UHGV virus genome: UHGV-0026213
Strand: one strand, 5' to 3'
DNA: 64,000 nt
Source: a virus
The notes under the pieces: model-generated
What the model was told of the DNA's origin: nothing
The model's database searches: none
What the model saw: the letters and a program-made list of their open reading frames with translations, nothing else
Shown here: piece after piece, positions 4,601 through 44,202 of the stretch
Position numbering within the stretch: the stretch's first letter is position 1
Layout of the letters: every line of letters starts with the position of its first letter
Program-made: the position numbers and the translations under genes

Positions 4601-5892
4601 GCCGGTGTTGCAGCAACCCCAGTCGTTTCTGTACCTTTACCTGTTTTAAGTTTAGCGACGCCTTTTTCGGCGGTTGTCGCTTTTGTTGGGTCGATAGTCC
4701 CCACGATAGGGTCGGCGCGAGAACCTTTACCGGTAAAGCTAATCCCATTACGACCTTCAATGTACACCTTCGAGTCATCAGGGTCGCCACCGCCACCAGA
4801 ACCCGCATCTGGATCTTGTTGGTATTCCATCAACGCCGTGGTAGTCAGTAACGGGTTACCGTTCAGGGTGAGTTTGTTCATCCCTAAAGCATCGCCTGTT
4901 GACTCGATGCGTAATGTGTTTTTACCGGCACGCCAGTTGATATAACGTCCTGCACCCGTACCTTCCAGATGCCCTACCGCTAATACCACAGAACCGTTGG
5001 ATTTTAACGTAAAACCATCGTTGGCAAAAATGATTTCGGACTCACCGTTTTTCGAACGGAACTGTGCGCGGTTTCCTGACACCGTACAGTTAAACACGCC
5101 CCGCACTTCCGAAGAAATCCAGTGAGAGATATACGTATCGATAACCGACTGCGGTAAACGAAACGCTTTCAGCTCATCCGTCAGTGCTTTCAACTTTAAC
5201 CCGTACGCCATAAAGGTGTCGGGTGTTTTCAAGTTAACAGGATGCGCGTTAATCTGCGCGGATGTGGTTTCGTGCGGGTTCTTCGCTGCGATATGTGCTG
5301 GGTAATTAAATGCTTCGATTTCTTTACCCAACGCAGTCACTAACGCTTTAACTTCAGCTAATTTGTCTTTAATTAGCTGGTTAGCGTCGTCGGTTTTCAA
5401 TTCAATATCGTGAACTGCCGACGCTAAATATTTTTTGTTCAGCAAATCCGCCCAGGACGTTGCTGCTGGCGTCGCTGGATATAACGATGGTCTACCGTCT
5501 AATAACAGCCAGTCAGCACTGACTGGGTTATTCAAATATTTCACCAGTTCATCGAGAATATCAACAAACGGGTCGTAGAACGTACCGCCGAGCATTTGTC
5601 CTTCAAAGGTTACGATACCCTTGATGGATGGGTTGATAAGGTGTACCCCACAATACACGTTGGCTGCTACCGAGTCATCCAGTTCCGTCAGCTGATATTG
5701 CAGTTCGTAGTCCACCCCACGACTCAGTGGGGTGGTTGAACCTGGTTGTCTGACGACCAAATCTTCAAAGAACGGGCGGTGGTCTAAAATCACCACCCGA
5801 TCGTTGTTGTTCTCTGACCCGATGATACGCTCCTCTAAGAAGTGATTCTCGGCTTTCGTCCCCCGAGGATCGTAAGGATACGCTTTCATCAA
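1684..5892 (-). CDS. Large tail fibre protein (1402 aa)
   Basis: Contains the fibre-type repeat ITKADLGLGQADNTADVDKPLSTEL, a Gly-rich linker (GGGGDPDD) and an HHH motif; adjacent to another giant fibre gene. Confidence 0.6.
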   Translation of the reverse strand: MMKAYPYDPRGTKAENHFLEERIIGSENNNDRVVILDHRPFFEDLVVRQPGSTTPLSRGVDYELQYQLTELDDSVAANVYCGVHLINPSIKGIVTFEGQMLGGTFYDPFVDILDELVKYLNNPVSADWLLLDGRPSLYPATPAATSWADLLNKKYLASAVHDIELKTDDANQLIKDKLAEVKALVTALGKEIEAFNYPAHIAAKNPHETTSAQINAHPVNLKTPDTFMAYGLKLKALTDELKAFRLPQSVIDTYISHWISSEVRGVFNCTVSGNRAQFRSKNGESEIIFANDGFTLKSNGSVVLAVGHLEGTGAGRYINWRAGKNTLRIESTGDALGMNKLTLNGNPLLTTTALMEYQQDPDAGSGGGGDPDDSKVYIEGRNGISFTGKGSRADPIVGTIDPTKATTAEKGVAKLKTGKGTETTGVAATPASLAPYSTDLSGYVAKTTMINGKPMNDGSRTITKADLGLGQADNTADVDKPLSTELNTALSGLADAGHHHDWSELGIYKASQTVYGIGRYATNQNGLVENRAVVPNVLKELSARLDVVAAAIANAKEGSVTDFAAVKGADWRFNSQGTAISVQDLKYFYLLNGAKADSAVTGSIDLQTTPMFNWFSPNNQIETTWPTGKVSAGKGINWTGIEEPPLMGFQSVPVGKTASQMGDQSVVTVLAKTRVRARQPKLWVYAAGGGPVTVYINGIQAATGQSPLVAVYETSADVENYTVAVKAECSDTAKSAAVQFEIYDGDYPVYFSGPETHVELLQEFVTTHVGIRHYLYVNMLTGSLYSRTEPIQSIAVDPERGYIGYVDIVAGGESYSNKTVSFETTFDFGKSAEVSEHISTRKAHGLSSVDWTLTDNPRLPLLNRAIPEPRALIYRKLLGAGSGGTLCTLSRGLFSYSHGLNVKSDLELIFSTEGAMPYCWFTPFNPKENNAPTFEGSFVFDVDDIAGTKALSAAPDLILCASSQGGTVGRRYVRINLTSKTCKVGVGAGSTSEVWHKSFELNNGSMLMDAGRETSVEITTKDVLFNGEVTNAEILDLIGWGANGDKISANHAPRGMIRYRYNVNTRVLRLALSFSQFGSTTINLRQIEMTLPFDLVDYFTGDGVGLAFNGLSEKCFLTINHALIDPKTGNIDIDKYHYLRSLFESYTDSSVGWLADSKDGDYYQKLIDPTSYVSELNYCPTETIALPTGQGSVAISHDGQLPAQFFPRKLSRGALMAKKGELHTSWNNEWSTSKAAANRYRHKLILRFAQGTDKQQYRIAKVTGTVKCNWPGKVIIGDAGKDAYVSAIDSVPFALSTSADTGKAVTLTPKDLRVGQDIYIVLEPPGNNPEGYELNFTCSLDVTDENGVRQDQLNAQSFELRSGESQFLMEKRNPYHITSKAWKWILAVLKRELNGKQLGDRT

Positions 5893-5902: not shown

Positions 5903-8900
5903 TTAATCGCGAATGATTACCGCCTGCACTTTATTGTTGGTGTCGATAAACGACATTACGCGCTCCTTGTTAAGATAAGGAGGTATCGGTAACGCAGCGT
6001 AATCCACCAGGTTGTTATTAAATTCAGTTGCCACTAACGCATTAAGCGTTTCGGGGTCTGAACTGACACCGGTCAATTCCATAACGCGCACACGATTTAA
6101 TGAGGAATAGTTGCTAATATAGTCTAACAACGTACCATAGACTTTATTCGCGGTTGCGCTATCTGCCGTAGAACGGATGTTGGCACGAACTTCATCCTCA
6201 TAAAGTCCCCCTAAACCGTAGTAAATAGGGGTATACGGATCGTTAACGATAGGTTCGATATTGAACCCTGTTAAACGGTCGGTTAATGGGATTTTCTGCG
6301 TAGTTCCCCCTGCCGCCGTACAACTTACATATTTGTCCGTCGCAGATAAATGCACCGCGACAGTATACGTAGTCCCCGCTAAGGTCAGTCTTGCACTAAA
6401 CGTTATTGCGTTGGTTGCACTACGGTTGTGGGTAAACGATACTTCAGGTTGTAATGAACTCCACGGTGCTGGCGTGACACGTTTCGTTGGTGTGAAACCC
6501 ACCACTACCGATTTCCCGCTACCGAAGTTCAAACCGAACCCTGCGTAACAATATTCACCGTTACTGTCGGTTAAACGATACCCGCGAGTGATAAGTAACG
6601 ACAACCGCATAAACTCGCCGTCGGTGTTTTTCCAACAACCTAAAACAGTTTCTAACACCGTGCCGGTTTTTGCGTTGCTTTCTGTTTCCCAACTGACTCG
6701 CATTCCTGCGTTCTTAAAAGCTGGGAACATGTTGTGGATAAACCCGTGTAGGTTATCGCTTACCCCTTTCGCGTCAAAAATCCACTTGGATGCGAGCTGG
6801 TCGTATTTCACCCCGTCTAAAGCTTTATACTGCCCACCGGCAACATAACGCCAATCTGCTTCACCGCGTACTACTGCCTGGAGTCCAGAAGCCCAGCAAG
6901 GCGCACCTACTGTTAAGTTAGCTAACCCAAGCGCTGCACGTGACGCGGAGCGCTGAATGTGTGCGTTGTCATCGGCTTTATGATCTTTCAGTTCACGGAA
7001 ATCGCCCAACCGTGTGACATTACGCATCTCCGTAACGAACACCTCAGAAATGTCGTTAACACCAATCAACCCTACACGCGTCATGGTATCCGTTTCAGCC
7101 TGACTGTAGCTGTCGTGGACAATATACTTCGCTTTGTTGTCAACAATATCAACAAAAATCCCTGCGTAGATTTCTGTATTCAATTTCGGAAAACGTTCAC
7201 TGACGTTAATCGTCATCAACGGAACGTCGTATGTTTCACCACCGATAAAATACGTTGAAGCTGGAAGCGTGACCAGAATTTTGTCTTTGACCGTAAGGTC
7301 TATTAAGTCGTTACCAGACTCACCAAAACGTATAATGTCAAGACGTGCCTCCGAGTCAACACCGCTGACAGCGCGCTCCAATTTTTCAATCTGGGATGTC
7401 TGCGCCATTACCACACTCCCATCGAGTGCTAAAGTCACATCATCCACATCCAGACCAAATTTAATCAGACCACGTTGCGCTGTGGTTGCGTTCCCTGTAC
7501 CAAAAGCGGTAAACGGGTGTTGGTGAACTTTAGGCGAGTATTTATCTAACTCCGCACGCTGTGCTGTAGAAATCGGTAAATCGGCATCGGGCGTATTCGC
7601 AACATTACCTAAACCAAAGGTAATCTTATCGATAGTAACCGAGCTGGTAAGTTGCATGTCGTTAATGTACGATTTAACTGCAACTAACTTACCGGTGAAC
7701 TCCGCATCGAGTTTTTCAATCAGTGCTGGCGTTGCTGCAAGGTTTTCAGCGGTACCGAACTCATCGGTCAACTGCCAAGCTGCCAGAGCTGTTGTATCGG
7801 TCGCGGTAGGAAGAATAAAGGTCGCTACGAACGGCGAGGCTTTTATCCCGCTACCGGTGATCGTAACCGTTGTTGTCGAACTTGCGTAGAATAAACCTGT
7901 GCCACCTGCGGTATTGCCTGGCAGATACGGGGCTACGGTGGTGGGGTCTAAGAGTTTTTTACCACGCCACAACAATCCTCGGTCATCGGGGTATAGCACA
8001 AGCTGGTTAGTACCTGCTTGGAACGTTACGGGGTTGTTACCCACGTTAACATCAGTTGAACCTTGGCCAATAAACTTGATGGATTTCGGATCAACAACAA
8101 ACTGGGCACCTAAACGTGTCTCGTCAACAACATCCGGTGCTTTCTTAATGGTAACCGTGTTACCTTTGTTTTGCGAACTAATGGTAACGGCGTCGGCAAC
8201 ATTATTGATCAGCGATTTAAAGTGGTGCTGATTCTCTAATGCTTCTAACGCAGCGTCCATGTTATCGAAGTTAATCCGACCGCTATACGTTTTACCGTTT
8301 ACGGTAATAACGACGTCAAACACGTTCCCTGTACGCTTCAGTTGAAAACGTAGCGTAAAATCCCCATCCGGTATTGCCGGATTAGGAGCTTGAGAAATAT
8401 AACGTACCGACGGTAACGGACTCCCGTAACCGTTCAATGTCAGACTGATAGTAAGGGTACCACCCCAGATTTGACCAGTAATCTCTACGAACTTACCGGA
8501 GTTACTACCCGGGTTTTCGTAGAAACGTAAACCAACCCTACCGACCGCTTCATTACCAGACGCTGTTTTACGTCCAGTAACAATAAAGTCAATATCTTGC
8601 AGGTTGGCAGGCACTGCATTAAAGTTAGCAATGAAACCGCTTTTCGCTCCTGTATAACGAAGCGCGCCGTGATATCTGTGACCACTACTAACATAGCTTT
8701 CGCTAAAATAAGGACTCACGTATTTCGACATCGAGACCGGATCAACTTCCGTCGTGAACGAAGTAAAACCCGGAAGTGTGGTAATCGTGCCGTTAACGTT
8801 CTTGCTCGGCGATTCACGAAGCAGTTTTTTCTGTGCGGTTAACGTTGCTTGTGTTGGGTACTTAGCATTAACATAATCCGTTAACTGCTGTTTCGTCTTC

Positions 8901-10225
8901 CCGTAAGCTAACGCGGCATCTGTCGCAATACCATTCAGCTCTAACGCACGGATCGGACCCCACGTATCGGTGTGCGGGTTGTCCTTACGTGTAACGTGTT
9001 CGTGTGCAGGCGCGTTACGATACAGCTGCTCAACTAACTGATGGTATTTGACTATTAACTGGTAAACATCGTTATCGATGTCAGGTTCTGGTGCGCCGGG
9101 TAAAGAACGAATTTGAATATAATCGTTTTCGGCCGCATACCAGTTTAAATTAATGTTCGTTTTAAACTTCAACCATTTAGCAACATCCGTTTTCGAATAC
9201 CCTGCCGAGAACTCATCAGGCGGCGTATCGACATTGAATGTGTAATCCATGGTCTGTTTATTTGTTTTTACTACGATGACGTAAACACCGTTTCCGGGTT
9301 GACGGGTTACACTAAAATCGATATCGTTTTTTAACTCATCGTCAGTTAAACCGTTGATTAACGTATAATCGTAGTTTGTTGAACCGCTACCAATAGCGAC
9401 CGTTAAGACCAGTGAGATTTTGCGCTGTTTTAGCTGCAGCCGTAGAATACTTGCACCGCCGTTAGCATAACAGAGCATCCAATCGATCTGTTCGTTTGGA
9501 TTCAATTTCGTCATGTCTGGCAGAATAGCAGGAATTATGTGTTTCACTGACAGGGCGTAGTCGTTAAAGGTTGCAGTTTTATAACTCAAGCTATAACGAT
9601 GACGGGCAGTGTTGTAGGTGAAGCCACCTTTATTGTCGTATACGGCATACTGCTCGGAAGTGATAACCTTGCTATTAGCACGGTATTCTAAATCCAGGGT
9701 ATTGCGTGCGATGGGGTTAAGCCGACTCACGACTTCCCCTAACGAATCGCCTAATCCAGCAATAGCCTGCATTAATTCCAGTTCACCTTTCCAATTCTCC
9801 CAATCGAACTGAATATCGACCGGCGGAAAGTAAACGTCCCCGATGACGGTGTCCCACTGACACGCAGACGGGTATTTATCTTTATTGAGTTCGCGTTCTG
9901 CGCTAATCTGTTGTTGGGTAGCCTGACCACAACCAACGGCGTGGTAATCTACCGTAAAATTCGATTTGTATTTGTCATTAACAATCCAAATCATCCCGTG
10001 AATGAGATAGGCTGTGCGCAACATACCGGTCTCGTACGGGTGTGTAATAACGTAATCGTCGCCTAAGGTCAGTGTTTTGCCGCCGCTCTTGACCACCAGG
10101 GATGTGGTGAAAAAAGGGGCGTGGGCAGGTACCAACATTCGGTATTTCGTACCAATGACGGCGACCGCTTCACCGGTTATTTTATTCCCCGGTTTTTTGA
10201 AGTGTGGGTCTAAGACGACAGCCAT
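5903..10225 (-). CDS. Large tail fibre protein (1440 aa)
   Basis: Contains the repeat KITFGLGNVANTPDADLPISTAQRAEL, matching the motif in the neighbouring fibre; 10-nt gap to the downstream gene suggests co-transcription. Confidence 0.6.
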   Translation of the reverse strand: MAVVLDPHFKKPGNKITGEAVAVIGTKYRMLVPAHAPFFTTSLVVKSGGKTLTLGDDYVITHPYETGMLRTAYLIHGMIWIVNDKYKSNFTVDYHAVGCGQATQQQISAERELNKDKYPSACQWDTVIGDVYFPPVDIQFDWENWKGELELMQAIAGLGDSLGEVVSRLNPIARNTLDLEYRANSKVITSEQYAVYDNKGGFTYNTARHRYSLSYKTATFNDYALSVKHIIPAILPDMTKLNPNEQIDWMLCYANGGASILRLQLKQRKISLVLTVAIGSGSTNYDYTLINGLTDDELKNDIDFSVTRQPGNGVYVIVVKTNKQTMDYTFNVDTPPDEFSAGYSKTDVAKWLKFKTNINLNWYAAENDYIQIRSLPGAPEPDIDNDVYQLIVKYHQLVEQLYRNAPAHEHVTRKDNPHTDTWGPIRALELNGIATDAALAYGKTKQQLTDYVNAKYPTQATLTAQKKLLRESPSKNVNGTITTLPGFTSFTTEVDPVSMSKYVSPYFSESYVSSGHRYHGALRYTGAKSGFIANFNAVPANLQDIDFIVTGRKTASGNEAVGRVGLRFYENPGSNSGKFVEITGQIWGGTLTISLTLNGYGSPLPSVRYISQAPNPAIPDGDFTLRFQLKRTGNVFDVVITVNGKTYSGRINFDNMDAALEALENQHHFKSLINNVADAVTISSQNKGNTVTIKKAPDVVDETRLGAQFVVDPKSIKFIGQGSTDVNVGNNPVTFQAGTNQLVLYPDDRGLLWRGKKLLDPTTVAPYLPGNTAGGTGLFYASSTTTVTITGSGIKASPFVATFILPTATDTTALAAWQLTDEFGTAENLAATPALIEKLDAEFTGKLVAVKSYINDMQLTSSVTIDKITFGLGNVANTPDADLPISTAQRAELDKYSPKVHQHPFTAFGTGNATTAQRGLIKFGLDVDDVTLALDGSVVMAQTSQIEKLERAVSGVDSEARLDIIRFGESGNDLIDLTVKDKILVTLPASTYFIGGETYDVPLMTINVSERFPKLNTEIYAGIFVDIVDNKAKYIVHDSYSQAETDTMTRVGLIGVNDISEVFVTEMRNVTRLGDFRELKDHKADDNAHIQRSASRAALGLANLTVGAPCWASGLQAVVRGEADWRYVAGGQYKALDGVKYDQLASKWIFDAKGVSDNLHGFIHNMFPAFKNAGMRVSWETESNAKTGTVLETVLGCWKNTDGEFMRLSLLITRGYRLTDSNGEYCYAGFGLNFGSGKSVVVGFTPTKRVTPAPWSSLQPEVSFTHNRSATNAITFSARLTLAGTTYTVAVHLSATDKYVSCTAAGGTTQKIPLTDRLTGFNIEPIVNDPYTPIYYGLGGLYEDEVRANIRSTADSATANKVYGTLLDYISNYSSLNRVRVMELTGVSSDPETLNALVATEFNNNLVDYAALPIPPYLNKERVMSFIDTNNKVQAVIIRD

Positions 10226-10293
10226 TCTCTACTCCTATAGTCCGTGGGCGTCGAAGTTCATACTATGACTTGAATCTATAGAGGAAAAGAGCT

Positions 10294-11556
10294 GTGACTA
10301 CTGCTTATCAAGTGCGGCCCGACAGCGCTTTTGGCTTCTCTCGAGAGTCCCGTACCTGGGGAGCCATCGATGTCACGCAACCCTTAAATACGTTGTGTTC
10401 AGACTACCACACCTTTGAGATCGGTTTAAGTGCACTTGGTAAAGACTATACGTTAGTCAGCCAATACCATCTTGCCGAGCTACAAAACCGAACAGACACT
10501 TTACAAGATTGGTTAAATGAAAAGGCCGGAAACGTCATCCCCACTCTAAAGGCCGGATTGCCGAAACTCGAATTCAGTTGGGCGCATTACCAATCGATTA
10601 ATGCTGACGTGCCCGTTGAAACGTACCTGTGTCCGCCGGGGTACCACCACAGTCAAGATTTCAGCTTAGACGATGCTGACGACGTTGTCATCGTTTGTGA
10701 GGACAAGTGGAAGGACAAATACCGTAATAGCGTTCTGTACAACATTAACGGTCAGTGGGTACCGCATCAGACGGATACCGTAGGTGTCCGATTACCCGGG
10801 GCCGGTAAAATTGTACGAAGGGCCTGTACGCCAGATATCGGCTGTATGGTTTTTGGTCAGTTAGGGAATGTTAAAACTTACCCCATCGCCAACCTTACCC
10901 TAAACAAGCTCGACACTACACGTGACTATTACTCCACGTTAATGATTTCACTGCCCGAATCTATTACGGGGAAAACGGTGGGTTTCGTCATCGGTGGTCT
11001 GTTACGTTGGTTGCCCCCAGGCGGTTATTTCTCCGACCGTGCGATCATGATTTCTTTACCGAATTTTGATCTTGCGCGGACCGTTCTGGAAACCCGTCGC
11101 TATTACGACTGGGACGCCATCGGTGTAGGGGATTTATCAACGCCTACTAATGTCCAACGTATTCGCAACCCCGAAACATTAAAGGCACTTTTACTCCACG
11201 AGTCTTCGTTTATCTTTACGGTAGATAACCCGTATTTAGAAGAAGAGGTTGTGGGTGTATCGCATAACGCAGTTTGGGGACGTTGTTATCTCAAGGACCC
11301 TAGCGATCCTGATTCTGAAAAACCATTAGGGTACTTAAATAATCGTTTCGGAAAGACGGTGGGCTATTGGCCTACATGGGAGGAGGGTGAGTGGGTATTT
11401 AACACCACGGAGTTCGACAGTCAAAACTACGTCTTTCGTGAAGCCCGGTGGTATAATCAGAAGAAGATTAACGACGCGCAAGCAATCGTCGGTCCATTCG
11501 GTCCCTGGGAAAAAGTGTATTTAGAAATGCATCGCTTTAGAGCACGAAAAAAATAA
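10294..11556 (+). CDS. Hypothetical protein (420 aa), rightward gene inside the leftward fibre cluster
   Basis: Long ORF with GTG start, followed by a hairpin plus T-run terminator; no recognisable motif. Confidence 0.5.
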   Translation: MTTAYQVRPDSAFGFSRESRTWGAIDVTQPLNTLCSDYHTFEIGLSALGKDYTLVSQYHLAELQNRTDTLQDWLNEKAGNVIPTLKAGLPKLEFSWAHYQSINADVPVETYLCPPGYHHSQDFSLDDADDVVIVCEDKWKDKYRNSVLYNINGQWVPHQTDTVGVRLPGAGKIVRRACTPDIGCMVFGQLGNVKTYPIANLTLNKLDTTRDYYSTLMISLPESITGKTVGFVIGGLLRWLPPGGYFSDRAIMISLPNFDLARTVLETRRYYDWDAIGVGDLSTPTNVQRIRNPETLKALLLHESSFIFTVDNPYLEEEVVGVSHNAVWGRCYLKDPSDPDSEKPLGYLNNRFGKTVGYWPTWEEGEWVFNTTEFDSQNYVFREARWYNQKKINDAQAIVGPFGPWEKVYLEMHRFRARKK

Positions 11557-11559
11557 AGT

Positions 11560-11606
11560 AACCTCCTACCCTCTAAGAGGGTAGGAGTAGCACGTTTTTT
11601 TTTTCG
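11560..11606. terminator. Bidirectional intrinsic terminator between convergent genes
   Basis: Inverted repeat CCTACCCTC..GAGGGTAGG followed by a T10 run, between a plus-strand stop and a minus-strand stop. Confidence 0.6.
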
Positions 11607-11607
11607 C

Positions 11608-11817
11608 TTAGTCTTTTTTGTAGACAATTGCGTTACCGTGCAGTTTGTTGTTGCCGGAAATACCGATAACTTTGAATGCGTCGCCGCCAATTTTTTCAGC
11701 TTCAGCAGCCAGCTTACCCGTTACATGATCAACGGTGTCGCCGAAAGCGCTAACGTTACCGATTTTCTTAAACTCTTCTGGAATATGCTCAGCAGAAGAG
11801 AACTCTTTAATAGACAT
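11608..11817 (-). CDS. DUF1471 (YdgH/BhsA/McbA-like) domain protein without signal peptide
   Basis: C-terminus VIGISGNNKLHGNAIVYKKD and upstream GDTVDHVTGKLAAEAEKIGGDAF match the enterobacterial DUF1471 signature. Likely start is the internal ATG (MSIKEF, GGAGAG SD); the ORF-track start at 11835 is TTG. Confidence 0.55.
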   Translation of the reverse strand: MSIKEFSSAEHIPEEFKKIGNVSAFGDTVDHVTGKLAAEAEKIGGDAFKVIGISGNNKLHGNAIVYKKD

Positions 11818-12023
11818 AACAGCTCTCCATTTCAAAAGGAAGGTGGTCTAAGACCGACGTGTGTTACAACCGAAGCATAAGATAGCTCCTCCCCGTAGGG
11901 AGGAGTAGAGTGCGCGAAAAAAGTGGCCTGCTTAACTAAACGATGGGTTTAAGAAAAGTGTTGATAAAAAGCTTTACCAACGTCAGGTCACAATATATAA
12001 ACACAACGTAAGAAAAAGGGGAA

Positions 12024-12989
12024 TTATTGCGGAGGTGATGTCGGACCATGTTTACCTTGGTGAATGTGAACGCTAAAGGTAATACCGGAAATAATGGCAT
12101 CTTTAACCGTAAAGACACCCACACCTTCACCCGTACCACCGTATTTGAAGTTCTTAGCAACTTCCAAATTACCGGTGAACATCGCTTCCTTCCCTTCTTG
12201 TTTAAAGTTCGGCGTTTTAAACGTTGTCGAACTGCCCGCTTCTGTTAACCAGGTTTGTGTTTTAAACGTAACGGAACTCGCTGCTTCCGTATTGCGGACT
12301 TCGCATTTTTCATTAATCGTTTTCGTTTCCAGGTTAATAGAACGCTTTGAATAAATGAACGCATCTTCTTTGTTGATGTTCACTTTTGAAAGCATCGCAT
12401 TCTCAAACCCGAGATCATCTTCAACCGAGTTAATGTAATACTTGTTTCCTTTATGGTCAACGCACTGCCACGTACCGTTTGCATTATCAAACTGAAACAA
12501 CCACGCCGCTTTCTCGCCATTCACCATACTCGTTCTTAGCGTGATATGTTTGTCAATCGTCGAAACGTTCAACACATACGCATTGGACAAGTCATCCGCC
12601 ATTTGGTTTTCAGGGTCAGCCGACCACGCATAAACCGCATCTTCTAATCGCTTAACGTTAGCGAAGTTCAGATCAATCCAAAAATAAATATCGGTTTTCC
12701 CCAAACGTAACAAGATAACGTAATCTTCTCGTTTAACGTCAGGGGAATTAATTCGGTTGGAGTTAAACTTCCACCACTTTGCTGTTATCGTGTTACCCGT
12801 CTTAATGGTTAGGTTATCTGTTGCACCAGATGTTTCGTGCGTCTTTTCAGTTGCTGAAGAAACAGATTGCACCACGGTAGGGTTAGCAAAGTTGGTTTCA
12901 ATTGGTATCACTTTTACCCGATCTGTACCACGGGGTTTGTCTTCCGCGACGATACCAATTGAGAAAAAATCAACACTGGATTTCTCCAT
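12024..12989 (-). CDS. Putative tail or baseplate protein (321 aa)
   Basis: Long minus-strand ORF heading the leftward cluster; beta-rich Ser/Thr/Asn composition and C-terminal VHIHQGKHG His motif. Function is inferred from context only. Confidence 0.4.
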   Translation of the reverse strand: MEKSSVDFFSIGIVAEDKPRGTDRVKVIPIETNFANPTVVQSVSSATEKTHETSGATDNLTIKTGNTITAKWWKFNSNRINSPDVKREDYVILLRLGKTDIYFWIDLNFANVKRLEDAVYAWSADPENQMADDLSNAYVLNVSTIDKHITLRTSMVNGEKAAWLFQFDNANGTWQCVDHKGNKYYINSVEDDLGFENAMLSKVNINKEDAFIYSKRSINLETKTINEKCEVRNTEAASSVTFKTQTWLTEAGSSTTFKTPNFKQEGKEAMFTGNLEVAKNFKYGGTGEGVGVFTVKDAIISGITFSVHIHQGKHGPTSPPQ

Positions 12990-13017
12990 CGGGACGTTCC
13001 TTAGATCGGAATTGAAT

Positions 13018-13041
13018 TCAGATATATATTACTTAAGTGAA
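13018..13041 (+). promoter_or_regulatory. Promoter-like motif TTCAGATATATATTACTTAAGTGA (copy 1)
   Basis: Near-identical 24-mer recurs at about 17405; preceded by TTGAAT; lies in the 370-nt divergent intergenic region. Confidence 0.4.
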
Positions 13042-13410
13042 TAGGGGCTGAAGTGCCAGTTCAGCCACTACGGACACGTTTCATTCGAAACGGATTGATT
13101 AAACCATTTGGGGAGACAGATCATGTCTACTAAAAAGAAAGAAAGTCTCAATGAGCTGCTCAAACGGCTTAAAGACTACACTCCATTTAGTACCTTCCGA
13201 TAACAGGTACTAAAATTTTACAGTCTGTCCCTTTATTCTGCTACTCGGGATACCGGTAGGGGGTAGGGGGCATTATGTATACGGATATAAATAGCGGAGG
13301 TATACGGAGTATACCGACATACTCTTCCCAGAGGAACGTAGTGACTTCCTTATACCTCTTTTACAATCCATAATAATAGCCTTCCCTTCATTGGGATTAG
13401 CGAGTAAATC

Positions 13411-14148
13411 ATGAGAGAATTATTAGACGATATCTTTACCAACACCAGTTTAGAACTTTCTTCTACGGTGGTTAACGAACTAATAGGGCAAACCCAACCT
13501 GCTAAGTTAATCGATGTTGGAACAATTAAACCTGAAGATTATCCAGACAGTGACGTTATCGACTGTATGATTGACGAATACGTGATAGGAAGTTACGCCA
13601 ACCGCGTCTTCTTTGTTATTAATACCGAAACCAGTGTCATGTTAATCTATAAGTTGATCAGTGATGCCGAACTTGAAGTTGTGGCTGACCACATTCGTCT
13701 TCTTGCGAACACACCTACTAGTATCGCTGATGTGCTTATTGGGAACGGTTGGGCTTTACCACCACTATTCTCTTACTTCCCTCTGTTTAGAAATGGGATA
13801 GGGTTACTCCGAAATGCAGAAAATCTTCCCGATAACGTCGAGTTATCACTGCTTGGACCCGGCATCGATCTTTGTCCATTAGAAGACGAGGGCACGCTAT
13901 ATGGTTTGCGCATCTATGTTTCTGTGTTAAACGGATACCGCGTTATTGAACTAATTGCATCCGACTTAGCAAAACAGATCCCAGATGTGGAAACGATTTC
14001 TAAAGCCACCCACCTGGTTGAGATTAACTCAGATGATCCCTTATTGAAATATCACGAGAAAATTGATCTTCGTAAAATCGCCACGATGAGAGGGTGGGGT
14101 TGTGCTGAGATTACGAAGGACTATCTGCTGTTAATTAAAACCGCGTAA
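13411..14148 (+). CDS. Hypothetical protein, member A of a tandem paralog array
   Basis: C-terminus MRGWGCAEITKDYLLLIKTA weakly resembles the GW..QLLF tail of the next three genes. Confidence 0.5.
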   Translation: MRELLDDIFTNTSLELSSTVVNELIGQTQPAKLIDVGTIKPEDYPDSDVIDCMIDEYVIGSYANRVFFVINTETSVMLIYKLISDAELEVVADHIRLLANTPTSIADVLIGNGWALPPLFSYFPLFRNGIGLLRNAENLPDNVELSLLGPGIDLCPLEDEGTLYGLRIYVSVLNGYRVIELIASDLAKQIPDVETISKATHLVEINSDDPLLKYHEKIDLRKIATMRGWGCAEITKDYLLLIKTA

Positions 14149-14177
14149 TTAAGAAAACCGAAAAAGGAGAATATACC

Positions 14178-14732
14178 ATGTTTCAAACTGAACTGAAAAA
14201 TGAAATTATCCAAACCCTTGAAAAGGGCGTAGGCGAACATTTCTTTGTCCGTCCTTATACCGTACTGACCAATACCATTATTCAGCCTGGTGCGATGATA
14301 GTAGGGGTAAGTGTACAAGCTGTAGAGGAAACCCCGCTGCGTCGTAACATCACACGTAAAACCCATATCCCATTTAAAACAGGTTTTACAGATTACCTTC
14401 AGAGCTTACTGGGGGATAGCGCTTGGAAAACAGGCAGCTTCTTCCACGAAGGGAAGACTTCCACGCTGGTTTATAAAGAGAGCACCAAGTATCTGGTTGA
14501 TTTTCTCTTAGCGCGTCAGTATACTTTCTTTCCAACCCCTACTGACTGCACCCCAGACAACCCAGGTAAGTTATTAAACCAAAGCGAAGCCGAGGCACTC
14601 TTTACAAGACTTCGGAATGAACAGTGCGATGTTGACGACTGGGAAACGTTGATCGCGGTCGCTAAAGCCCACGGTTGGTATACCGTACGTAAAATCGGCC
14701 AGCAGCTGTTGTTCTTAGCTTACCCTGCTTAA
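14178..14732 (+). CDS. Hypothetical protein, paralog family member B
   Basis: SD AAGGAG upstream; C-terminal HGWYTVRKIGQQLLFLAYPA. Confidence 0.6.
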   Translation: MFQTELKNEIIQTLEKGVGEHFFVRPYTVLTNTIIQPGAMIVGVSVQAVEETPLRRNITRKTHIPFKTGFTDYLQSLLGDSAWKTGSFFHEGKTSTLVYKESTKYLVDFLLARQYTFFPTPTDCTPDNPGKLLNQSEAEALFTRLRNEQCDVDDWETLIAVAKAHGWYTVRKIGQQLLFLAYPA

Positions 14733-14761
14733 GTAACGAAAAAACCTAAAGGAGAGTAAAA

Positions 14762-15913
14762 ATGCGAAATATTATTTCTAAACCAGGACATGCCAAGATC
14801 CTAAAAGAACTGATGGACAGATGCTATAATCGGACTTGGTCACTACCAAGCTTAACCATCGAATCTTCATTACAACGTGAGTTGTTTGGTTATAACTTGG
14901 GCTGCTGTGTACTTACTGAATACAATGAGATTATCGCACCTGTCGATGTCTGTACTTACGATGAAGAAATTGAAGGTTACAAGTTCGCGGTTTACACAAA
15001 TTGTGGACTAAATTACCGTAAACTCGTTGTTAGGGAAAAGAGTAGCAACCGGAAGATTATGTTTAAGGTCTTCCCAAGTGGTAAAGTCAGTAATTTATGT
15101 CTTCAGCTTGAGAAAGTGCCCTTTCACGGTGCAGCCATTTTAACTAAACCAGAACTCCTGTTATTAAGCGGGTTAATTGGCTTTGAAGTAAAAACCATCA
15201 AAGTTGAGCAGGAACTTACACGAAACGATTTCGGCTCAACTTGGTACGAAAGTTTCTTCCGCTACGAAATGTTAAGTGATAAAGCTATCAAACTCACTTA
15301 CCGTTCTACCGACGATATCGTTTACCACATTTTAATTAGCGGCGAACCCCACCAGATTATTGAAGACGAAGGAGAAAAATCAGTGTGCACCTTAAAAGAT
15401 GAATTAACTGATTTTGTTAACAAAATTGATAACGTGGGTATCAGTGAATTATTGTTCCCGATACAGCATCCAGAGTTGCTTGACGAGAAATCTGAAAACG
15501 TGGTTATGGGTGTGCATTTACTTCCTGACCATCTTGCTATCTACCGTACACTTTCTAAAAATCAACTTAAAGTGTGGTGCCTGTTAAAAGACCTTTTAAC
15601 AGAGGCGGGGTGGTCGTGTAGTGTAGATGTTAACTGTGAAGGAGTTGCGTTCTTCATCACAATAGGCAATCGTAGTTTTTCTGTCGATTTACCTACTCGC
15701 AGCTATTACAATTTCTTCCCGACCGCAGAAGGACGTACTGAAAAAGAACCCGCATTACTGCTCAGTGCTGAGGAGTCCAATGCGTTAATGACGAAACTAA
15801 AAGCGAAAGACGAGAAGCTGGATGCTTTACATCTACCTATAATCGGGAAAGACTACGGTTGGGCTGACGTGCAAAAATACGGCAGCCAACTGTTGTTTGT
15901 TGCCAACATTTAA
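14762..15913 (+). CDS. Hypothetical protein, paralog family member C
   Basis: SD AAAGGAG upstream; C-terminal YGWADVQKYGSQLLFVANI. Confidence 0.6.
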   Translation: MRNIISKPGHAKILKELMDRCYNRTWSLPSLTIESSLQRELFGYNLGCCVLTEYNEIIAPVDVCTYDEEIEGYKFAVYTNCGLNYRKLVVREKSSNRKIMFKVFPSGKVSNLCLQLEKVPFHGAAILTKPELLLLSGLIGFEVKTIKVEQELTRNDFGSTWYESFFRYEMLSDKAIKLTYRSTDDIVYHILISGEPHQIIEDEGEKSVCTLKDELTDFVNKIDNVGISELLFPIQHPELLDEKSENVVMGVHLLPDHLAIYRTLSKNQLKVWCLLKDLLTEAGWSCSVDVNCEGVAFFITIGNRSFSVDLPTRSYYNFFPTAEGRTEKEPALLLSAEESNALMTKLKAKDEKLDALHLPIIGKDYGWADVQKYGSQLLFVANI

Positions 15914-15980
15914 TAAGTGAAACTACACTTTCTCTAACTGCCGCGCTTTAGTCGCGGCTTTTGTTAAGAAGGAAATAGAA

Positions 15981-16754
15981 ATGAAAGTCCATTTAGACGA
16001 TATCTTTAAAACCGAACCGTATATGATCGAAGGCCCGCTATCATCACTACTATTTGCCGATAGATTAGATCGTACGCTGCAATTACAATCGGTCGAATCT
16101 GCACCCGTTGATGATGTAGAGCGTTACGAGCGCATCAACCATACGCGGGGTGAGTATCGTCGCTATAAGCCAAATTCACTAAGCATCAAGCTCTGGCAAG
16201 TGAGCACAGGTAAAGTATTAACTTATCGCGCTGTTGGTAGTTATTACATTCAACAAGCCAAGGAATGGCTAGAGAAAGTTAAAGAACTGAACTTCGATCT
16301 ACTGAGCAAAAAACTGCGCGATCATAACGCCAGTTTGCCGATACGTAATTATTTCTCCACGATTGAAAATAGTCGTTGTTTCGTTTCTCGTGAATCCACG
16401 ATATTACCTGGGGATGATGTTCAGACGACACTAAAAGATGTGGTTGTGAAGAAAATCTTTCATGAATCTGAACACGTTGGGTTCCGTATCTACTTAACAC
16501 ACAAGAGACCATTTACCGTTATTCACGTTGATACCGCACCCGAAGGCTCAGCGGTTATTCGAGAACTTCCTGATGCTCGAGACCGTTGCCCTAATGAGCC
16601 GCTTTATTTAATGTCAGGAACAAAATCAACCGCGTTGATGTCCCGTTACAGCATGTTAGATGTTGTTGACGCTGCTATGAAACTAGGTTGGAAAGAAGTG
16701 CAGCAACATGGTAAACAATTGCTGTTTATTGCCGATGTAAAACTTAATCAATAG
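15981..16754 (+). CDS. Hypothetical protein, paralog family member D
   Basis: C-terminal LGWKEVQQHGKQLLFIADV. Confidence 0.6.
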   Translation: MKVHLDDIFKTEPYMIEGPLSSLLFADRLDRTLQLQSVESAPVDDVERYERINHTRGEYRRYKPNSLSIKLWQVSTGKVLTYRAVGSYYIQQAKEWLEKVKELNFDLLSKKLRDHNASLPIRNYFSTIENSRCFVSRESTILPGDDVQTTLKDVVVKKIFHESEHVGFRIYLTHKRPFTVIHVDTAPEGSAVIRELPDARDRCPNEPLYLMSGTKSTALMSRYSMLDVVDAAMKLGWKEVQQHGKQLLFIADVKLNQ

Positions 16755-16766
16755 TGAGGTGGTACC

Positions 16767-17345
16767 GTGTACCGATTAATAGAAATGCGAAAAGACGTTT
16801 GGTTGGAAAACCTCGTCGATGGGGAGCTTGAGGGAATAGAGCTTTCCTTACCAGAAAGAGCGGACACGGTATTGGTCTTTCTGATAAAACAGGCAGCGAA
16901 TGAACCGGTAGGAATCTTCAGCGTGGACTATAAAGACCCACGAGGGATTCATTTACGGAACATTTGCAGTGGTTTAGAAAGCTTACCGGCTAATCCGTTC
17001 TTAAACTACGCAAAACGTAAACTCCAGCCTGGACAACATCTCTGGGTAGTTCTAGCGCCTGATACACGCATTATACGTGACGACCTGACTGCGTTTGTCC
17101 AAGCAACGAAAGTCAGTTTGTACAATCCTAATGCGGATCGTACCGATATGCCGTTTACAATCACCTTAGAAGACGATGGAACGCAAGAGGGTATTGAGGC
17201 AATTACGGAATTAGTAAACTCTTATCCGGTAGCGTCTATTGAGTTAGAAAACCCAAACCGATTACCGTTGGGTGATTTACTCGAATGGATTGAGCTGAAT
17301 ACCGAGTTCCTCATTAACTCCCGGCAGTACCGGTTCGATGTATAA
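16767..17345 (+). CDS. Hypothetical protein (192 aa)
   Basis: GTG start with GAGGTGG SD; followed by terminator hairpin GGTGGGGG..CCCCCCACC plus T-run. Confidence 0.5.
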   Translation: MYRLIEMRKDVWLENLVDGELEGIELSLPERADTVLVFLIKQAANEPVGIFSVDYKDPRGIHLRNICSGLESLPANPFLNYAKRKLQPGQHLWVVLAPDTRIIRDDLTAFVQATKVSLYNPNADRTDMPFTITLEDDGTQEGIEAITELVNSYPVASIELENPNRLPLGDLLEWIELNTEFLINSRQYRFDV

Positions 17346-17348
17346 CAT

Positions 17349-17385
17349 CGGTGGGGGTTTACCCCCCACCTTTTATTTTTTTGTT
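17349..17385 (+). terminator. Intrinsic terminator
   Basis: GGTGGGGGTTTACCCCCCACC hairpin followed by TTTTATTTTTTT. Confidence 0.6.
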
Positions 17386-17404
17386 CGTTAATATTAAAAA
17401 TAAT

Positions 17405-17428
17405 TTCAGATATATATTACTTAGGTGA
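17405..17428 (+). promoter_or_regulatory. Promoter-like motif TTCAGATATATATTACTTAGGTGA (copy 2)
   Basis: Second copy of the 13018 motif, preceded by an AT-rich tract and about 50 nt upstream of the 17477 gene. Confidence 0.45.
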
Positions 17429-17476
17429 GAGTTACGATTAACTCTTTATACATTAACGCCATGAAGGAGCAAAACA

Positions 17477-17938
17477 ATGAAAATCTTCACTTCCTTTTTA
17501 ATCGCCCTTTTCGTAATCGGTTTCAATACTGCACACGCCGCTATCAATAACTGGGAACAAATACAAAACCCTGGCCAGGCAGTTTACGAAATTGAAGACA
17601 CCGCCGGAAACGGACTGTCTATCAACTGTGACACAGAAACTGCGAATCGCAAATTTTACGGTCGCATGGTTTGGTATTACGGTGAACCCGTAGGTGCAAC
17701 TAACGCGGAAGATAACACGTTGGATATTGTCGTAAACGGCAAGACCTATAACATCCCTACCGTGGACGGTAGTGACAAAGCAGAACACGCTTGGGTTGCT
17801 TTCGTTAATGCTATCGGTAATGCCAAAACTTTCAGTGTGAGTATCAATGGTAACGACACCGCTAACTTTACCGTAGAAGGCGAACGTCTGTCTGAAACTT
17901 TCTTCCAGAACTGTGGACACACCCGTCCTAACAAATAA
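17477..17938 (+). CDS. Small secreted protein (153 aa)
   Basis: N-terminal signal peptide MKIFTSFLIALFVIGFNTAHA; SD GAAGGAG. Confidence 0.55.
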   Translation: MKIFTSFLIALFVIGFNTAHAAINNWEQIQNPGQAVYEIEDTAGNGLSINCDTETANRKFYGRMVWYYGEPVGATNAEDNTLDIVVNGKTYNIPTVDGSDKAEHAWVAFVNAIGNAKTFSVSINGNDTANFTVEGERLSETFFQNCGHTRPNK

Positions 17939-17960
17939 CTATTAGTCTTTTTTAGAGTGC

Positions 17961-18353
17961 GTGAAAATGAATATCAGAACTATACTTTATATCATCATTA
18001 TTTTCTGTGCGGTCGGAATTACTGGCACTTATGCTTTCGGTGATTCGGATGTCCGCTATTACGAACCGGCTCCTGACTCACCGATTATCAACCCGGATGA
18101 GACGCCTGCGTTAATGCGCAGTTTCGGTAAACTGCAAGTTTATCGTTTAGTGCGTGGTGAAACCTGTACGGGTTTACTCATTGCTGACACCCGTGCACAA
18201 GTCTACCAACGTCTAACCGATATCGCCTGCGAACAACCAAAAGTCATGTCGGTTAGTATCCATCCGCTATCAGTTGGTAACTATACCGCTGTGGACTTCT
18301 TTCACAACGCCGAATTAATCGGGCGCGTTACCTTAAATCGTCCTGCCGAATAA
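17961..18353 (+). CDS. Small secreted or membrane-anchored protein (130 aa)
   Basis: Hydrophobic N-terminus ILYIIIIFCAVGITGTYA. Confidence 0.5.
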   Translation: MKMNIRTILYIIIIFCAVGITGTYAFGDSDVRYYEPAPDSPIINPDETPALMRSFGKLQVYRLVRGETCTGLLIADTRAQVYQRLTDIACEQPKVMSVSIHPLSVGNYTAVDFFHNAELIGRVTLNRPAE

Positions 18354-18371
18354 TCTAAAGGAGTAGTTATA

Positions 18372-18857
18372 ATGAAACGTTTACACACATTGATGTTCTT
18401 TCTGGTTTTCTTGTTTATCGGTACCACGCCAACTGTAGATGCGGCCTCCGTAGACGAATTGCTTACCTGCGATGGAAACGCTTGGGAAGGTCAGCCAAAT
18501 GCGTGCCCAAACATCAACGACTTGTACGATACCGATAAGTCGTTTAAAGCCGTTGTTGATAAAACATTAGACCCTGTGGGGCTGGATGGTATGTTCGGCT
18601 CTAAAGGTTACATGGATGGTCCTGGCGGTAACATGTATCCGGTAAACATCAACAACAAAATCTGGATTGAAAGTGGCGGTTGTAAAGCTAACGCTTGTGG
18701 TTGGGAATACATCGTAACGCTATACAACCCACACACCAAGAAACTCGTCGGCTATTACTACAACATCGACCCCGGTTATCTGATTTGGTTCGGTGATATC
18801 GGTGTTGCTGAATTCGCTTACCTGGTTAAGAAGTACGTAGAACAATCTAAATACTAA
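18372..18857 (+). CDS. Small secreted Cys-containing protein (161 aa)
   Basis: Signal peptide MKRLHTLMFFLVFLFIGTTPTVDA; SD AAAGGAG. Confidence 0.55.
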   Translation: MKRLHTLMFFLVFLFIGTTPTVDAASVDELLTCDGNAWEGQPNACPNINDLYDTDKSFKAVVDKTLDPVGLDGMFGSKGYMDGPGGNMYPVNINNKIWIESGGCKANACGWEYIVTLYNPHTKKLVGYYYNIDPGYLIWFGDIGVAEFAYLVKKYVEQSKY

Positions 18858-18868
18858 GGACTTTTATC

Positions 18869-19279
18869 ATGAAAACTATCATTAATACTCTTCTCATTGC
18901 AATTGCTGTTCTGTTCTCTGTCAACGCTACAGCAAAGACAATACAGTTGCCAGACAATATTAAGTACGTCAATAGCACCGATGATTTCTATTGTACGGAA
19001 ATTGACGGCTTGTACTGTCAGGCAAAGAGCCTGTTTAAATACAAAGGTAGCAGATACGTATTCATCGTTGAGCAAGGTGGTGCCTGGTGCTACGACAGCC
19101 CAATGTCCGTACTCAACCTCGAAACGTGGAAGGCTCAGCGTCTCGAATACAACGACAAACGTCTGTGCTCTGGTAATAACAAACCATTCTTCAAAGTCGT
19201 AGATGGTGTGCCAATGGTAGGGATATTAGACACTTCGGAAAAACCTATCGTTGTAGCTATGGATAAACTTAAAATTTAA
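18869..19279 (+). CDS. Small secreted Cys-containing protein (136 aa)
   Basis: Signal peptide MKTIINTLLIAIAVLFSVNATA. Confidence 0.55.
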   Translation: MKTIINTLLIAIAVLFSVNATAKTIQLPDNIKYVNSTDDFYCTEIDGLYCQAKSLFKYKGSRYVFIVEQGGAWCYDSPMSVLNLETWKAQRLEYNDKRLCSGNNKPFFKVVDGVPMVGILDTSEKPIVVAMDKLKI

Positions 19280-19289
19280 GGAGTAACTC

Positions 19290-19679
19290 ATGCGTCTCGT
19301 CTGCGTTTTAGCATTCTTCTTCTCCCTGAGTGTAGCAGCATCTACTCAAGTTAACGATTTACTGCTAACCCCAAACAACAATACCGATTACCAGTACAAT
19401 CCTCCTGGGTTTGAAGTTTGTGAAGTCGGTGAAACAATCTGCCAAGAAGTCGGCGCAGACGGGCGCTATATTCTGGTAAAAGCTGATGGTGGCACAATGT
19501 GTCCCGCAGGTTATTACTTTCTGCTCGATTCCGTCGCAAGAGAGGTTCTTCCTATCACCACAAAAACGTGCGACCCTACTGTTGTCTTAACTCTCGCTAA
19601 AAGCAAATCTCGCGACCGTTATCTGATTGTTATCGAAGAACGGGGCAAGATGGCTGGTGCTATCGAATTAGATCATTGA
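19290..19679 (+). CDS. Small secreted Cys-containing protein (129 aa)
   Basis: Signal peptide MRLVCVLAFFFSLSVAAS; followed by terminator hairpin. Confidence 0.55.
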   Translation: MRLVCVLAFFFSLSVAASTQVNDLLLTPNNNTDYQYNPPGFEVCEVGETICQEVGADGRYILVKADGGTMCPAGYYFLLDSVAREVLPITTKTCDPTVVLTLAKSKSRDRYLIVIEERGKMAGAIELDH

Positions 19680-19745
19680 GTGTAGTCTTGGCCCCGATAC
19701 GTTCGGGGTCCTTTTTACGACATGTTTACCTAAAGGAGTATTAAA

Positions 19746-20222
19746 ATGCAATTATCTAACGTTTACCAAGCTGCGCAATTTCATCATGACCTGTCGGCTA
19801 AACCTGAACAAATTCGCCACAACTTAACGGTGGCCTGGAAACTGCTGCGTATCGCCGAAGCCTCCCGCCTTAACGATCAGTCGACGATTATCGAGACGGT
19901 GCGCACACTACATCCAGTCGACCTGGAAACAATCTGGACCTTTGATTTAACCCGAATTTATCACCGTCGTTTTAATGCGGCAGTTGATGCAATCCGTCCT
20001 TACTTTCATCACCTGCGAACAACACGCGAAAATGACACCGCACTTGAGTGGGTATTGGTACAAAGCGTATGGAGCGACTACATTTATCTCCTTTCTTTAG
20101 AGACGGGTGAATGTATCGTTGCTAACGAAGTTTTTTCAAGTAACGCAGAAATGTATCGTTCCTTCGCGACGATTAAAGGTGAAACACAACCTATTTTATC
20201 ACTCACGCACTTAGGGCTGTAA
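19746..20222 (+). CDS. Hypothetical protein (158 aa)
   Basis: SD cassette TAAAGGAGTATTAAAATG; terminator downstream. Confidence 0.5.
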   Translation: MQLSNVYQAAQFHHDLSAKPEQIRHNLTVAWKLLRIAEASRLNDQSTIIETVRTLHPVDLETIWTFDLTRIYHRRFNAAVDAIRPYFHHLRTTRENDTALEWVLVQSVWSDYIYLLSLETGECIVANEVFSSNAEMYRSFATIKGETQPILSLTHLGL

Positions 20223-35087: not shown

Positions 35088-35100
35088 ATATTATCCAGGT
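35085..35100 (+). promoter_or_regulatory. Promoter-like motif TAGATAGATATTATCC
   Basis: Second copy of the AGATATTATC motif, about 35 nt upstream of the 35124 gene. Confidence 0.35.
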
Positions 35101-35123
35101 GTAACACCATTGGAGTTATTAAA

Positions 35124-44171: not shown

Positions 44172-44202
44172 TCTTACTACCTCAATTTCAAAAAGAAGTC
44201 AG

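Follow-up and report, generated by a model that had tools for sequence, protein, structure and literature searches.

Probable early promoters of a jumbo phage

According to a review, an AT-rich motif of about 10 nucleotides (nt) lies near position -10 in every jumbo phage that encodes an RNA polymerase (RNAP). Wherever transcripts have been profiled it marks the early promoters, and the reader of the motif must be the virion RNAP (vRNAP) (PMC7598289). In phiKZ, differential RNA sequencing (dRNA-seq) identified 32 early promoters (PMC8244752). Taken together with ONT-cappable-seq, the count is 28-32, and these promoters combine an extended -10 box with a T-rich motif farther upstream (PMC8244752, PMC10914365). 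For AR9, dRNA-seq and primer extension yielded 41 early starts. Their consensus is AAATATATATTAT-(6N)-G, and their use is independent of chloramphenicol (PMC5312081). The predicted early promoter of N1M2, TBYAWWWWWTTTCARRYAKATATTATYWAAGTGWA (TTTCARRYAKATATTATYWAAGTGWA), occurs in 31 copies before operons, and the same table gives the predicted early promoters of OBP, 201phi2-1 (...TATATTACDWHDGTG) and phiKZ (TATATTAC) (PMC7058600). Here we describe a 24-nt repeat in a stretch of 64,000 nt from the virus genome UHGV-0026213; this whole stretch is called the window below. We consider it quite probable that the two copies of the repeat, and two weaker ones that begin at 35078 and 44197, serve a phiKZ-like jumbo phage as early promoters that are read by the vRNAP. 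What we infer from sequence comparison is that the sites work as promoters, that the vRNAP uses them and not the non-virion RNAP (nvRNAP) or the polymerase of the host, exactly where transcripts start, that they do so early, and what the hairpins described below are for.

Four copies of the motif in the window

The sites and the terminator that precedes the second of them are as follows. Classes and bit scores are explained below.

P1: 13017-13040, + strand, putative class A promoter with the core CAGATATATATTACTTAAGTG; exact 24-mer, 44 bits, kept in five orthologous loci
P2: 17384-17428, + strand, putative class A promoter made up of the A/T-rich tract TTCGTTAATATTAAAAATAATT and the core TTCAGATATATATTACTTAGGTGA; exact 24-mer, 58 bits, the highest score in the window
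P3: 35078-35101, + strand, putative class B promoter TAGATAGATATTATCCAGGTG; 39 bits, overlaps the stop codon of the open reading frame (ORF) 34419-35087, next ATG at 35124
P4: 44197-44220, + strand, putative class B promoter CAGACAGATATTATCTACGTG; 36 bits, in the divergent intergenic region 44172-44242, next ATG at 44243
Intrinsic terminator: 17350-17383, + strand, GGTGGGGGTTTACCCCCCACC and a T-run; closes the upstream operon directly before P2

The 24-mer TTCAGATATATATTACTTA(A/G)GTGA was found at 13017-13040 (TTCAGATATATATTACTTAAGTGA) and at 17405-17428, where it ends in ...TTAGGTGA. Both copies are on the + strand. They had been noticed in an initial annotation made from the sequence alone, which placed the first of them one nucleotide too far to the right, at 13018. 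When up to three mismatches were allowed, the window still contained two matches, compared with none in 100 dinucleotide shuffles. The bare 8-mer TATATTAC occurred at chance level (2 found, 2.15 expected), and the signal therefore resides in the long motif. A degenerate pattern, TTTCARRYAKATATTAYYWARGTG, was derived from published jumbo-phage promoter consensus sequences and searched with up to three mismatches. It gave four matches where none were expected, adding the degenerate copies at 35078-35101 and 44197-44220, both on the + strand. A position weight matrix (PWM) built from 85 sites also gave four matches, with scores of 36-58 bits against a shuffled null maximum of 2.1 bits.

All four window copies are on the + strand, intergenic and 25-87 nt upstream of a start codon. 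In P3 and P4, the conserved GTG ends 23 nt 5' of the start codon, and a Shine-Dalgarno sequence precedes that start. The copies come in two flavours, class A with CAGATATATATTACYTAGGTGAGAG (P1 and P2) and class B with YAGAYAGATATTATC...G (P3 and P4). An A/T-rich element of about 10 nt and of the TATATTAC/ATATATTAT type reads ATATATTAC in P1 and P2 and GATATTAT in P3 and P4, and the two classes have an ATATTAY-N6-G core in common.

The surroundings of the sites differ. P1 sits in a divergent intergenic region, 28 nt from the ATG of a baseplate gene (12989, - strand), in DNA of about 47% G+C. P2 lies downstream of the terminator hairpin at 17350-17370, and the 30 nt 5' of it have 10% G+C. The AT-rich tract that the initial annotation saw before each copy is thus present at P2 and missing at P1. 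The - strand ORF 43707-44171 beside P4 is supported as a real gene by its match to phrog_5894 (E 2e-55).

Identity of the phage and recurrence of the motif

The large genes of the window match phiKZ-type virion, baseplate and tail families in PHROGs. They include a 2058-aa tail protein with a transglycosylase domain; the initial annotation had suggested that such a protein would fit this group. The baseplate protein is 73% identical to those of the Erwinia phages phiEaH2 and Stratton and 61% identical to that of the Salmonella phage SPN3US. Judged by these virion families and baseplate identities, the window comes from an undescribed relative in the SPN3US/phiEaH2 clade of nucleus-forming jumbo phages (Chimalliviridae). 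Two IMG/VR contigs of 221-225 kb were 92-98% identical to the window.

Window positions 12000-19000 were compared by megablast with 50,697 phage records. The similarity was confined to 55-65 nt centred on P2, at 89-91% identity, in 33 SPN3US-like/Erskinevirus records, and the matching segments always lay in unannotated intergenic DNA. The aligned layout common to P2, SPN3US and phiEaH2 consists of a terminator hairpin, a T-run, an A/T tract, the motif and a short inverted repeat. Scans of IMG/VR found the exact motif in 18 stretches and the degenerate form in 119, mostly in contigs longer than 200 kb that carry several copies each on a single strand. A literature search for the exact motif strings returned unrelated papers only.

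Recurrence upstream of genes elsewhere in the genome had been set beforehand as the test of the promoter hypothesis. The complete phiEaH2 genome contained 21 PWM sites above 8 bits (null maximum 4.4), every one on the + strand. RefSeq annotation places 20 of these 21 in intergenic DNA, 40-80 nt 5' of the next + strand start; the exception is inside gp142. Some of the sites lie upstream of RNAP genes, at 195757 (gp216/gp218) and at 182312 and 182403 (gp204-gp205), where the nvRNAP assignment rests on annotation and synteny; another precedes a gene for a helix-turn-helix protein. In IMGVR_UViG_3300029126_000001, which is 94-98% identical to the window, the 79 kb examined contained nine sites. 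All nine were on the + strand, each was followed by a Shine-Dalgarno sequence and an ATG, and five fell outside the span of the window. The weaker copies recur as well. P3 corresponds to a degenerate phiEaH2 site at 107608, between gp129 and gp130, with orthologous sites also in other relatives, and P4 to the syntenic phiEaH2 site at 116303. Both are kept between orthologous genes although the flanking DNA has diverged beyond megablast detection. Across the window and phiEaH2, all 25 sites were co-oriented with the next gene. The clade, the genome-wide recurrence and the match to published motifs thus all agree with the phiKZ-like early promoters that the initial annotation had proposed as a hypothesis.

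The annotation of phiEaH2 around the exceptional site deserves a comment of its own. A conserved unannotated gene at 115818-116270 (- strand) runs into the annotated gp142 (115984-116877) and is 58% identical to window 43707-44171 (phrog_5894). Because this conserved - strand gene fills the space, gp142 appears to be over-extended at its 5' end. Its true start is probably near 116346-116374, just past the promoter site at 116303.

Virion RNA polymerase genes

The initial annotation had stated that no RNAP subunit gene is present in the window. This was mistaken, as one ORF matches an RNAP family from end to end.

vRNAP betaC subunit gene: 42366-43034, + strand, 222 aa; matches phrog_3233 'RNA polymerase beta subunit' over its whole length, E 6e-93

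The C-terminal 105 aa of this protein share 89% identity with phiEaH2 gp140. Its homologs in KTN4, RAY and DT01 carry a vRNAP beta/beta' annotation. The vRNAP betaC of SPN3US, gp218, has been identified as a head protein of 222 aa by mass spectrometry (PMC5105663). The window protein has the same length, with packaging in the virion demonstrated for SPN3US only. In a contig 94% identical to the window, the vRNAP betaN gene starts about 2.6 kb past the right end of the window. It is 82% identical to phiEaH2 gp161, and the betaC/betaN arrangement is that of phiEaH2. The gp140 annotation covers only the C-terminal 105 codons and looks like a truncated gene call.

Comparison with known early promoters

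The initial annotation took the core TATATTAC to be the early-promoter consensus of phiKZ-like phages, and it is listed for phiKZ in PMC7058600. The resemblance to phiKZ goes beyond this core, which is present in class A. The element lies at about -10, there are dozens of copies per genome, upstream of early operons and with a strong one-strand bias, and the virion and non-virion RNAPs have split beta/beta' subunits. There are also differences. The conserved stretch is longer here (about 24 nt for the core and about 45 nt with the tract) and near-identical across genera. The predicted leaders are 50-87 nt (class A) and 23 nt (class B), whereas those of phiKZ are typically 31-40 nt. The papers that mapped phiKZ transcripts do not mention an invariant GTGAGAG start region or a 5' hairpin (PMC8244752, PMC10914365).

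Between TTTCA and GTG, P2 departs from the N1M2 consensus at a single base, a C for T at ATATTAT. With the N1M2-derived window pattern (Y and R at two positions), P1 and P2 had 0-1 mismatch and P3 and P4 had three. The OBP, N1M2 and 201phi2-1 promoters are bioinformatic predictions from a subclade (EL/OBP-like) other than that of the window. Unlike N1M2, the strong window copies have C as the last core base, as do phiKZ and 201phi2-1.

The spacing is identical to that of AR9, in which ATATATATTA(T/C) is followed by exactly 6 nt and an invariant G. The window form is ATATATATTAC, six bases and G. AR9 is outside Chimalliviridae, has uracil-DNA and infects a Gram-positive (Bacillus) host, and the CAGA and TTAGGTGAGAG flanks are not common to the two. 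The paper that mapped AR9 transcripts does not mention 5' hairpins (PMC5312081). In all 25 window and phiEaH2 sites a G is found 7 nt after TTAY, and the two bases preceding it vary. Because the AR9 spacing matches and these two bases vary, we placed the predicted start sites at the invariant G, namely G13039 (P1), G17427 (P2), G35101 (P3) and G44220 (P4).

Weighing the early promoter assignment

Several points weigh against the assignment. A literature search found no transcript 5' ends, timing or rifampicin/chloramphenicol data for the SPN3US/phiEaH2 clade. No vRNAP has been purified so far (PMC5312081), and direct recognition is thus unproven even in the model phages. The PWM was seeded with sites selected by the pattern, so its core columns are ascertainment-biased, and the phiKZ (Ceyssens 2014) and OBP consensus sequences are cited second-hand. 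P1 has neither an upstream A/T tract nor a terminator and is followed by a leader of 370 nt and not by a gene. Lastly, the class B copies (GATAGATATTATC) have short leaders and no hairpin, and they could belong to another temporal class.

This last point leads to the alternative that survives best, although we judge it improbable. All copies, or only the class B sites P3 and P4, might be phage promoters read by the nvRNAP, or of the middle or continuous class. The existence of two sequence flavours would suit it, as would the fixed 23-nt leaders of class B and its want of both A/T tract and hairpin, and some phiKZ and AR9 genes do carry promoters of two classes (PMC8244752, PMC5312081). However, the known motifs of this kind look different. 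The phiKZ middle/late motif is weak, AT-rich or TACT near -22 to -24 (PMC7598289, PMC8244752), and the AR9 late promoters read AACA-N6-TA/G (PMC5312081). Moreover, the class B copies in phiEaH2 precede the nvRNAP genes gp216/gp218, which are needed before any nvRNAP exists, and classes A and B have the same ATATTAY-N6-G core.

Still less probable is that the repeats are strong host sigma-70 promoters, with an A/T-rich UP element and TATATT as the -10 box. TATATT equals TATAAT at five of six positions and stands at the place of a -10 box relative to the predicted start, and P2 does have an A/T-rich tract upstream. However, a consensus scan of positions 10000-20000 called neither P1 nor P2 and found 15 sites compared with 16.9 expected in shuffles. 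There is no TTGACA-like hexamer at 16-18 nt, and position -7, counted from the start given by the AR9 spacing, is C or T (C in P1 and P2), whereas T is strongly preferred there by sigma-70. Phages of Salmonella, Erwinia, Klebsiella and Pseudomonas all retain the extended motif, and a Bacillus phage retains its core. The motif tracks the phage polymerase and not the host sigma factor. Early transcription of phiKZ and AR9 is itself independent of the host RNAP (PMC7598289).

Phage N4 represents another type of vRNAP promoter, in which a DNA hairpin upstream of the start is recognised by a single-subunit vRNAP. An N4-type promoter was rejected here, where the hairpin follows the predicted start and the polymerase genes code for multisubunit enzymes.

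If the four sites are vRNAP-read early promoters, transcription might proceed as follows. The multisubunit vRNAP would enter the cell together with the injected DNA and recognise the A/T-rich, -10-like ATATATTAY at about -16 to -7, with the conserved CAGA just upstream. Strong copies would offer an additional A/T-rich tract at about -45 to -21. Initiation would occur at the invariant G, seven bases after TTAY, and rightward operons of small early genes would be transcribed. A class A transcript would start with GAGAG or GAGAT and fold at once into a 5'-terminal hairpin, which would most plausibly shield the early mRNA from 5'-end-dependent decay. As the promoter would usually follow the terminator of the preceding operon, the outcome would be a repeated cassette of terminator, promoter and leader.

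Genes downstream of P1 and P2

As the initial annotation had described, both 24-nt copies precede rightward gene runs in the ORF layout.

Gene run after P1: 13411-17345, + strand, five ORFs without assigned function (13411-14148, 14178-14732, 14762-15913, 15981-16754 and 16767-17345)
Gene run after P2: 17477-19710, + strand, five small ORFs without assigned function (17477-17938, 17961-18353, 18372-18857, 18869-19279 and 19290-19679)

The first three ORFs of the P1 run have no phiEaH2 homolog, and a terminator-like site was found within the run at 15940-15958. The P2 run ends in a terminator at 19690-19710 and shows partial synteny with phiEaH2 gp104-gp109.

Hairpins at the predicted transcript starts

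The leaders of the two class A sites in the window contain the following inverted repeats.

P2 transcript 5'-terminal hairpin: 17427-17446, + strand, GAGAGTTA-cgat-TAACTCTT; starts at the predicted +1
P1 leader hairpin: 13042-13070, + strand, 11-bp stem TAGGGGCTGAA/TTCAGCCACTA, in which the window copy has a single G-A mismatch; from +4 of the predicted transcript

Such hairpins are frequent at this position. Among 40 non-redundant class A sites, 62% had a stem of at least 6 bp with its 5' arm 0-4 nt from the GTG. Shuffles gave 22% (maximum 38% among 200), and offsets farther downstream gave 2-10%. Averaged over the same sites, the folding energy had just two minima along the sequence, at about -78, where the upstream terminators lie, and at 0. 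The stems vary among copies (GAGAGTTA/TAACTCTT, GTGAGAG/CTCTCAC, GAGATTGC/GTAATCTT and GAGCATTGA/TCAATGCT), and an RNA or single-strand structure therefore fits better than a protein-binding site. The P1 hairpin showed three independent compensatory changes at three pairs in five orthologs, with 98% of cells paired; one of 500 shuffles reached these values. In Escherichia coli, the shielding of mRNA from 5'-end-dependent decay by a 5'-terminal stem-loop is an established mechanism. We offer as a hypothesis that the hairpin at +1 serves as an mRNA protector in this clade.

A further short motif was seen in the leaders of class A copies at many loci. In 26 of 89 such leaders, counted without redundancy, GAC(C/T)AT, often as TCGACCAT or TGACTATCAAGGAG, came after the 5' hairpin and before the Shine-Dalgarno sequence, compared with 3.5 expected and a maximum of 10 in 300 shuffles. 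Examples are L001 3050-3085 and L002 3070-3110, and the P2 leader of the window has a weak version.

A conserved candidate structured element in the P1 leader

The 370 nt after P1 contain no long ORF. Two features were recognised in them.

Micro-ORF of 26 codons: 13124-13203, + strand, MSTKKKESLNELLKRLKDYTPFSTFR; Shine-Dalgarno GGAGA, first ORF behind P1
Conserved non-coding block of about 135 nt: approximately 13228-13362, + strand, G5-N3-G5 and the hairpin CGGA-GGTATAC-gga-GTATACC-GACATACT

The peptide pattern of the micro-ORF, M-S/F-T/A-x-K/Q-K-...-P-R/F-R*, is kept in three loci (L083, L127 and L128) whose DNA has diverged. The closest relative, L009, lacks the segment corresponding to window 13081-13182, and with it the start and the first 20 codons.

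Relatives with an overall identity of only about 80% match the block at about 98%. A profile search found homologs at the syntenic spot in phiEaH2, SPN3US, Asesino, SPAsTU, SNUABM29/4/6/9 and ChrisDB, whereas 'distant' blastn against phages gave no match to the block. The homologs occupy a divergent intergenic region of 170-290 nt beside the baseplate gene in Seoulvirus, Erskinevirus and Machinavirus. Their loci are phiEaH2 83860-83988, L111 4225-4299 (SPN3US) and L020, L023, L045, L107, L117 and L144-L149. Four of 16 matches to a gapped block pattern were discarded as G+C-rich chance matches. Invariant pieces are G5-N3-G5, CGGAGG and CCGAC.T.C, with the layout CGGAGG-hairpin-CCGACATCC; there is also a variable second hairpin.

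The hairpin between CGGAGG and CCGAC.T.C was preserved through eight different stem sequences. In its alignment 93.9% of cells were paired, compared with 72.7% in shuffles, and 10 cells were doubly changed where 2.7 were expected. None of 500 shuffles reached either value, and slid registers were clearly worse. RNAalifold gave no useful result on the cross-genus MAFFT alignment of the block, in which the variable helices were out of line, and only the one in-register helix was counted. The window copy folded better than its shuffles (z = -2.5), and no Rfam family matched the block. We regard 13228-13362 as a candidate structured RNA or regulatory element. The sequence TTTTTTACG upstream of the block was considered as a promoter motif and dropped, as phiEaH2 has seven + strand copies of it, often a terminator tail.

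Possible gain and loss of cassettes at the putative promoters

P2 also coincides with a gene insertion. In L009 (9532-9979, compared with window 17433-17462), an extra gene of 123 codons is inserted exactly after the GTGAGAGT of P2, with a leader similar to the one behind a different promoter copy of this genome (L003). On slender evidence, this suggests gain and loss of cassettes by recombination at the promoter repeats. A known parallel is provided by the PeSLs of T4-like phages, cassettes of a terminator stem-loop and an early promoter that mediate modular gene shuffling (PMC2839356, PMC4122927). The resemblance lies in a repeated unit of terminator and promoter at accessory-gene boundaries, and in an indel breakpoint at the repeat, here at P2. 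PeSL promoters are of the sigma-70 kind, whereas the sites here are putative vRNAP promoters, and their cassette extends to a 5' hairpin in the predicted transcript. The PeSL-like architecture was seen for P2 and for the class A average, and the signs of shuffling consist of one clear indel, which is too small a sample, and the clade-specific P1.

The same observations could be taken to mean that the repeat is no promoter but another kind of cis element, such as a protein operator, a site at which RNA is processed or stabilised, or a target of recombination or homing that moves from one gene boundary to another. In the closest relative, the indel starts right where the P2 motif ends. P1 and its leader form an insertion relative to phiEaH2 and SPN3US, which lack them at this place, and a hairpin adjoins the motif. 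Nevertheless, we give such an element very little chance. The polarity is strict, with 25 of 25 sites pointing toward the next gene. The distances to the invariant G and to the Shine-Dalgarno sequence and ATG are fixed, and the sites follow terminators. In phiKZ and AR9, primer extension and dRNA-seq have placed primary 5' ends at the homologous motifs (PMC8244752, PMC5312081). An indel at a promoter fits early promoter function too, because recombination at repeated promoters is a known by-product, as in the PeSLs of T4.

A wider proposal, which we put forward tentatively and think less likely to be right than wrong, builds on early promoter function. It would make the promoter copies components of a larger mobile early cassette with a functional transcribed portion. 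The hairpin at +1 would then be under selection in the strong early transcripts of this clade, and it could stabilise the mRNA or act as a signal, either to the vRNAP or to the early infection vesicle. In the clade of the window, P1 would have been inserted before the 135-nt element, which could represent a new phage RNA family or riboregulator.

Other features of the window

Two neighbouring genes for giant virion proteins, 1684-5892 and 5903-10225 (both - strand; 1402 and 1440 aa), are partial paralogs. They have phrog_8078, phrog_7557 and phrog_7449 segments and tail-fibre-like stretches in common and are syntenic with phiEaH2 gp091 and gp092. In the thymidylate synthase ORF 50541-52076 (+ strand, 511 aa), ThyA segments flank an HNH endonuclease domain that covers about residues 120-270. 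The phiEaH2 thyA (342 aa) has no such insert, which may be an intein or an in-frame intron ORF. A tRNA search of the window and Rfam searches of the window and the P1 leader gave no match, and a Pfam search with 10 mid-window ORFs returned nothing useful. An exact look-up of the 2058-aa tail protein found no identical record.

Implications

These results do not overturn current understanding, since promoters of this kind were already known and were to be expected here. The PWM with its predicted +1 sites provides a usable early-promoter model for an uncharacterised genus and marks the genes that are probably expressed first. The near-identical 45-nt cassette, kept across genera that otherwise have no DNA in common, points to a tight constraint of the vRNAP on its promoter. 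The cassette can also serve as a simple sequence signature for this clade in metagenomes. Finally, the 5'-terminal hairpin and the structured element beside the baseplate gene offer testable leads on post-transcriptional control in nucleus-forming phages.

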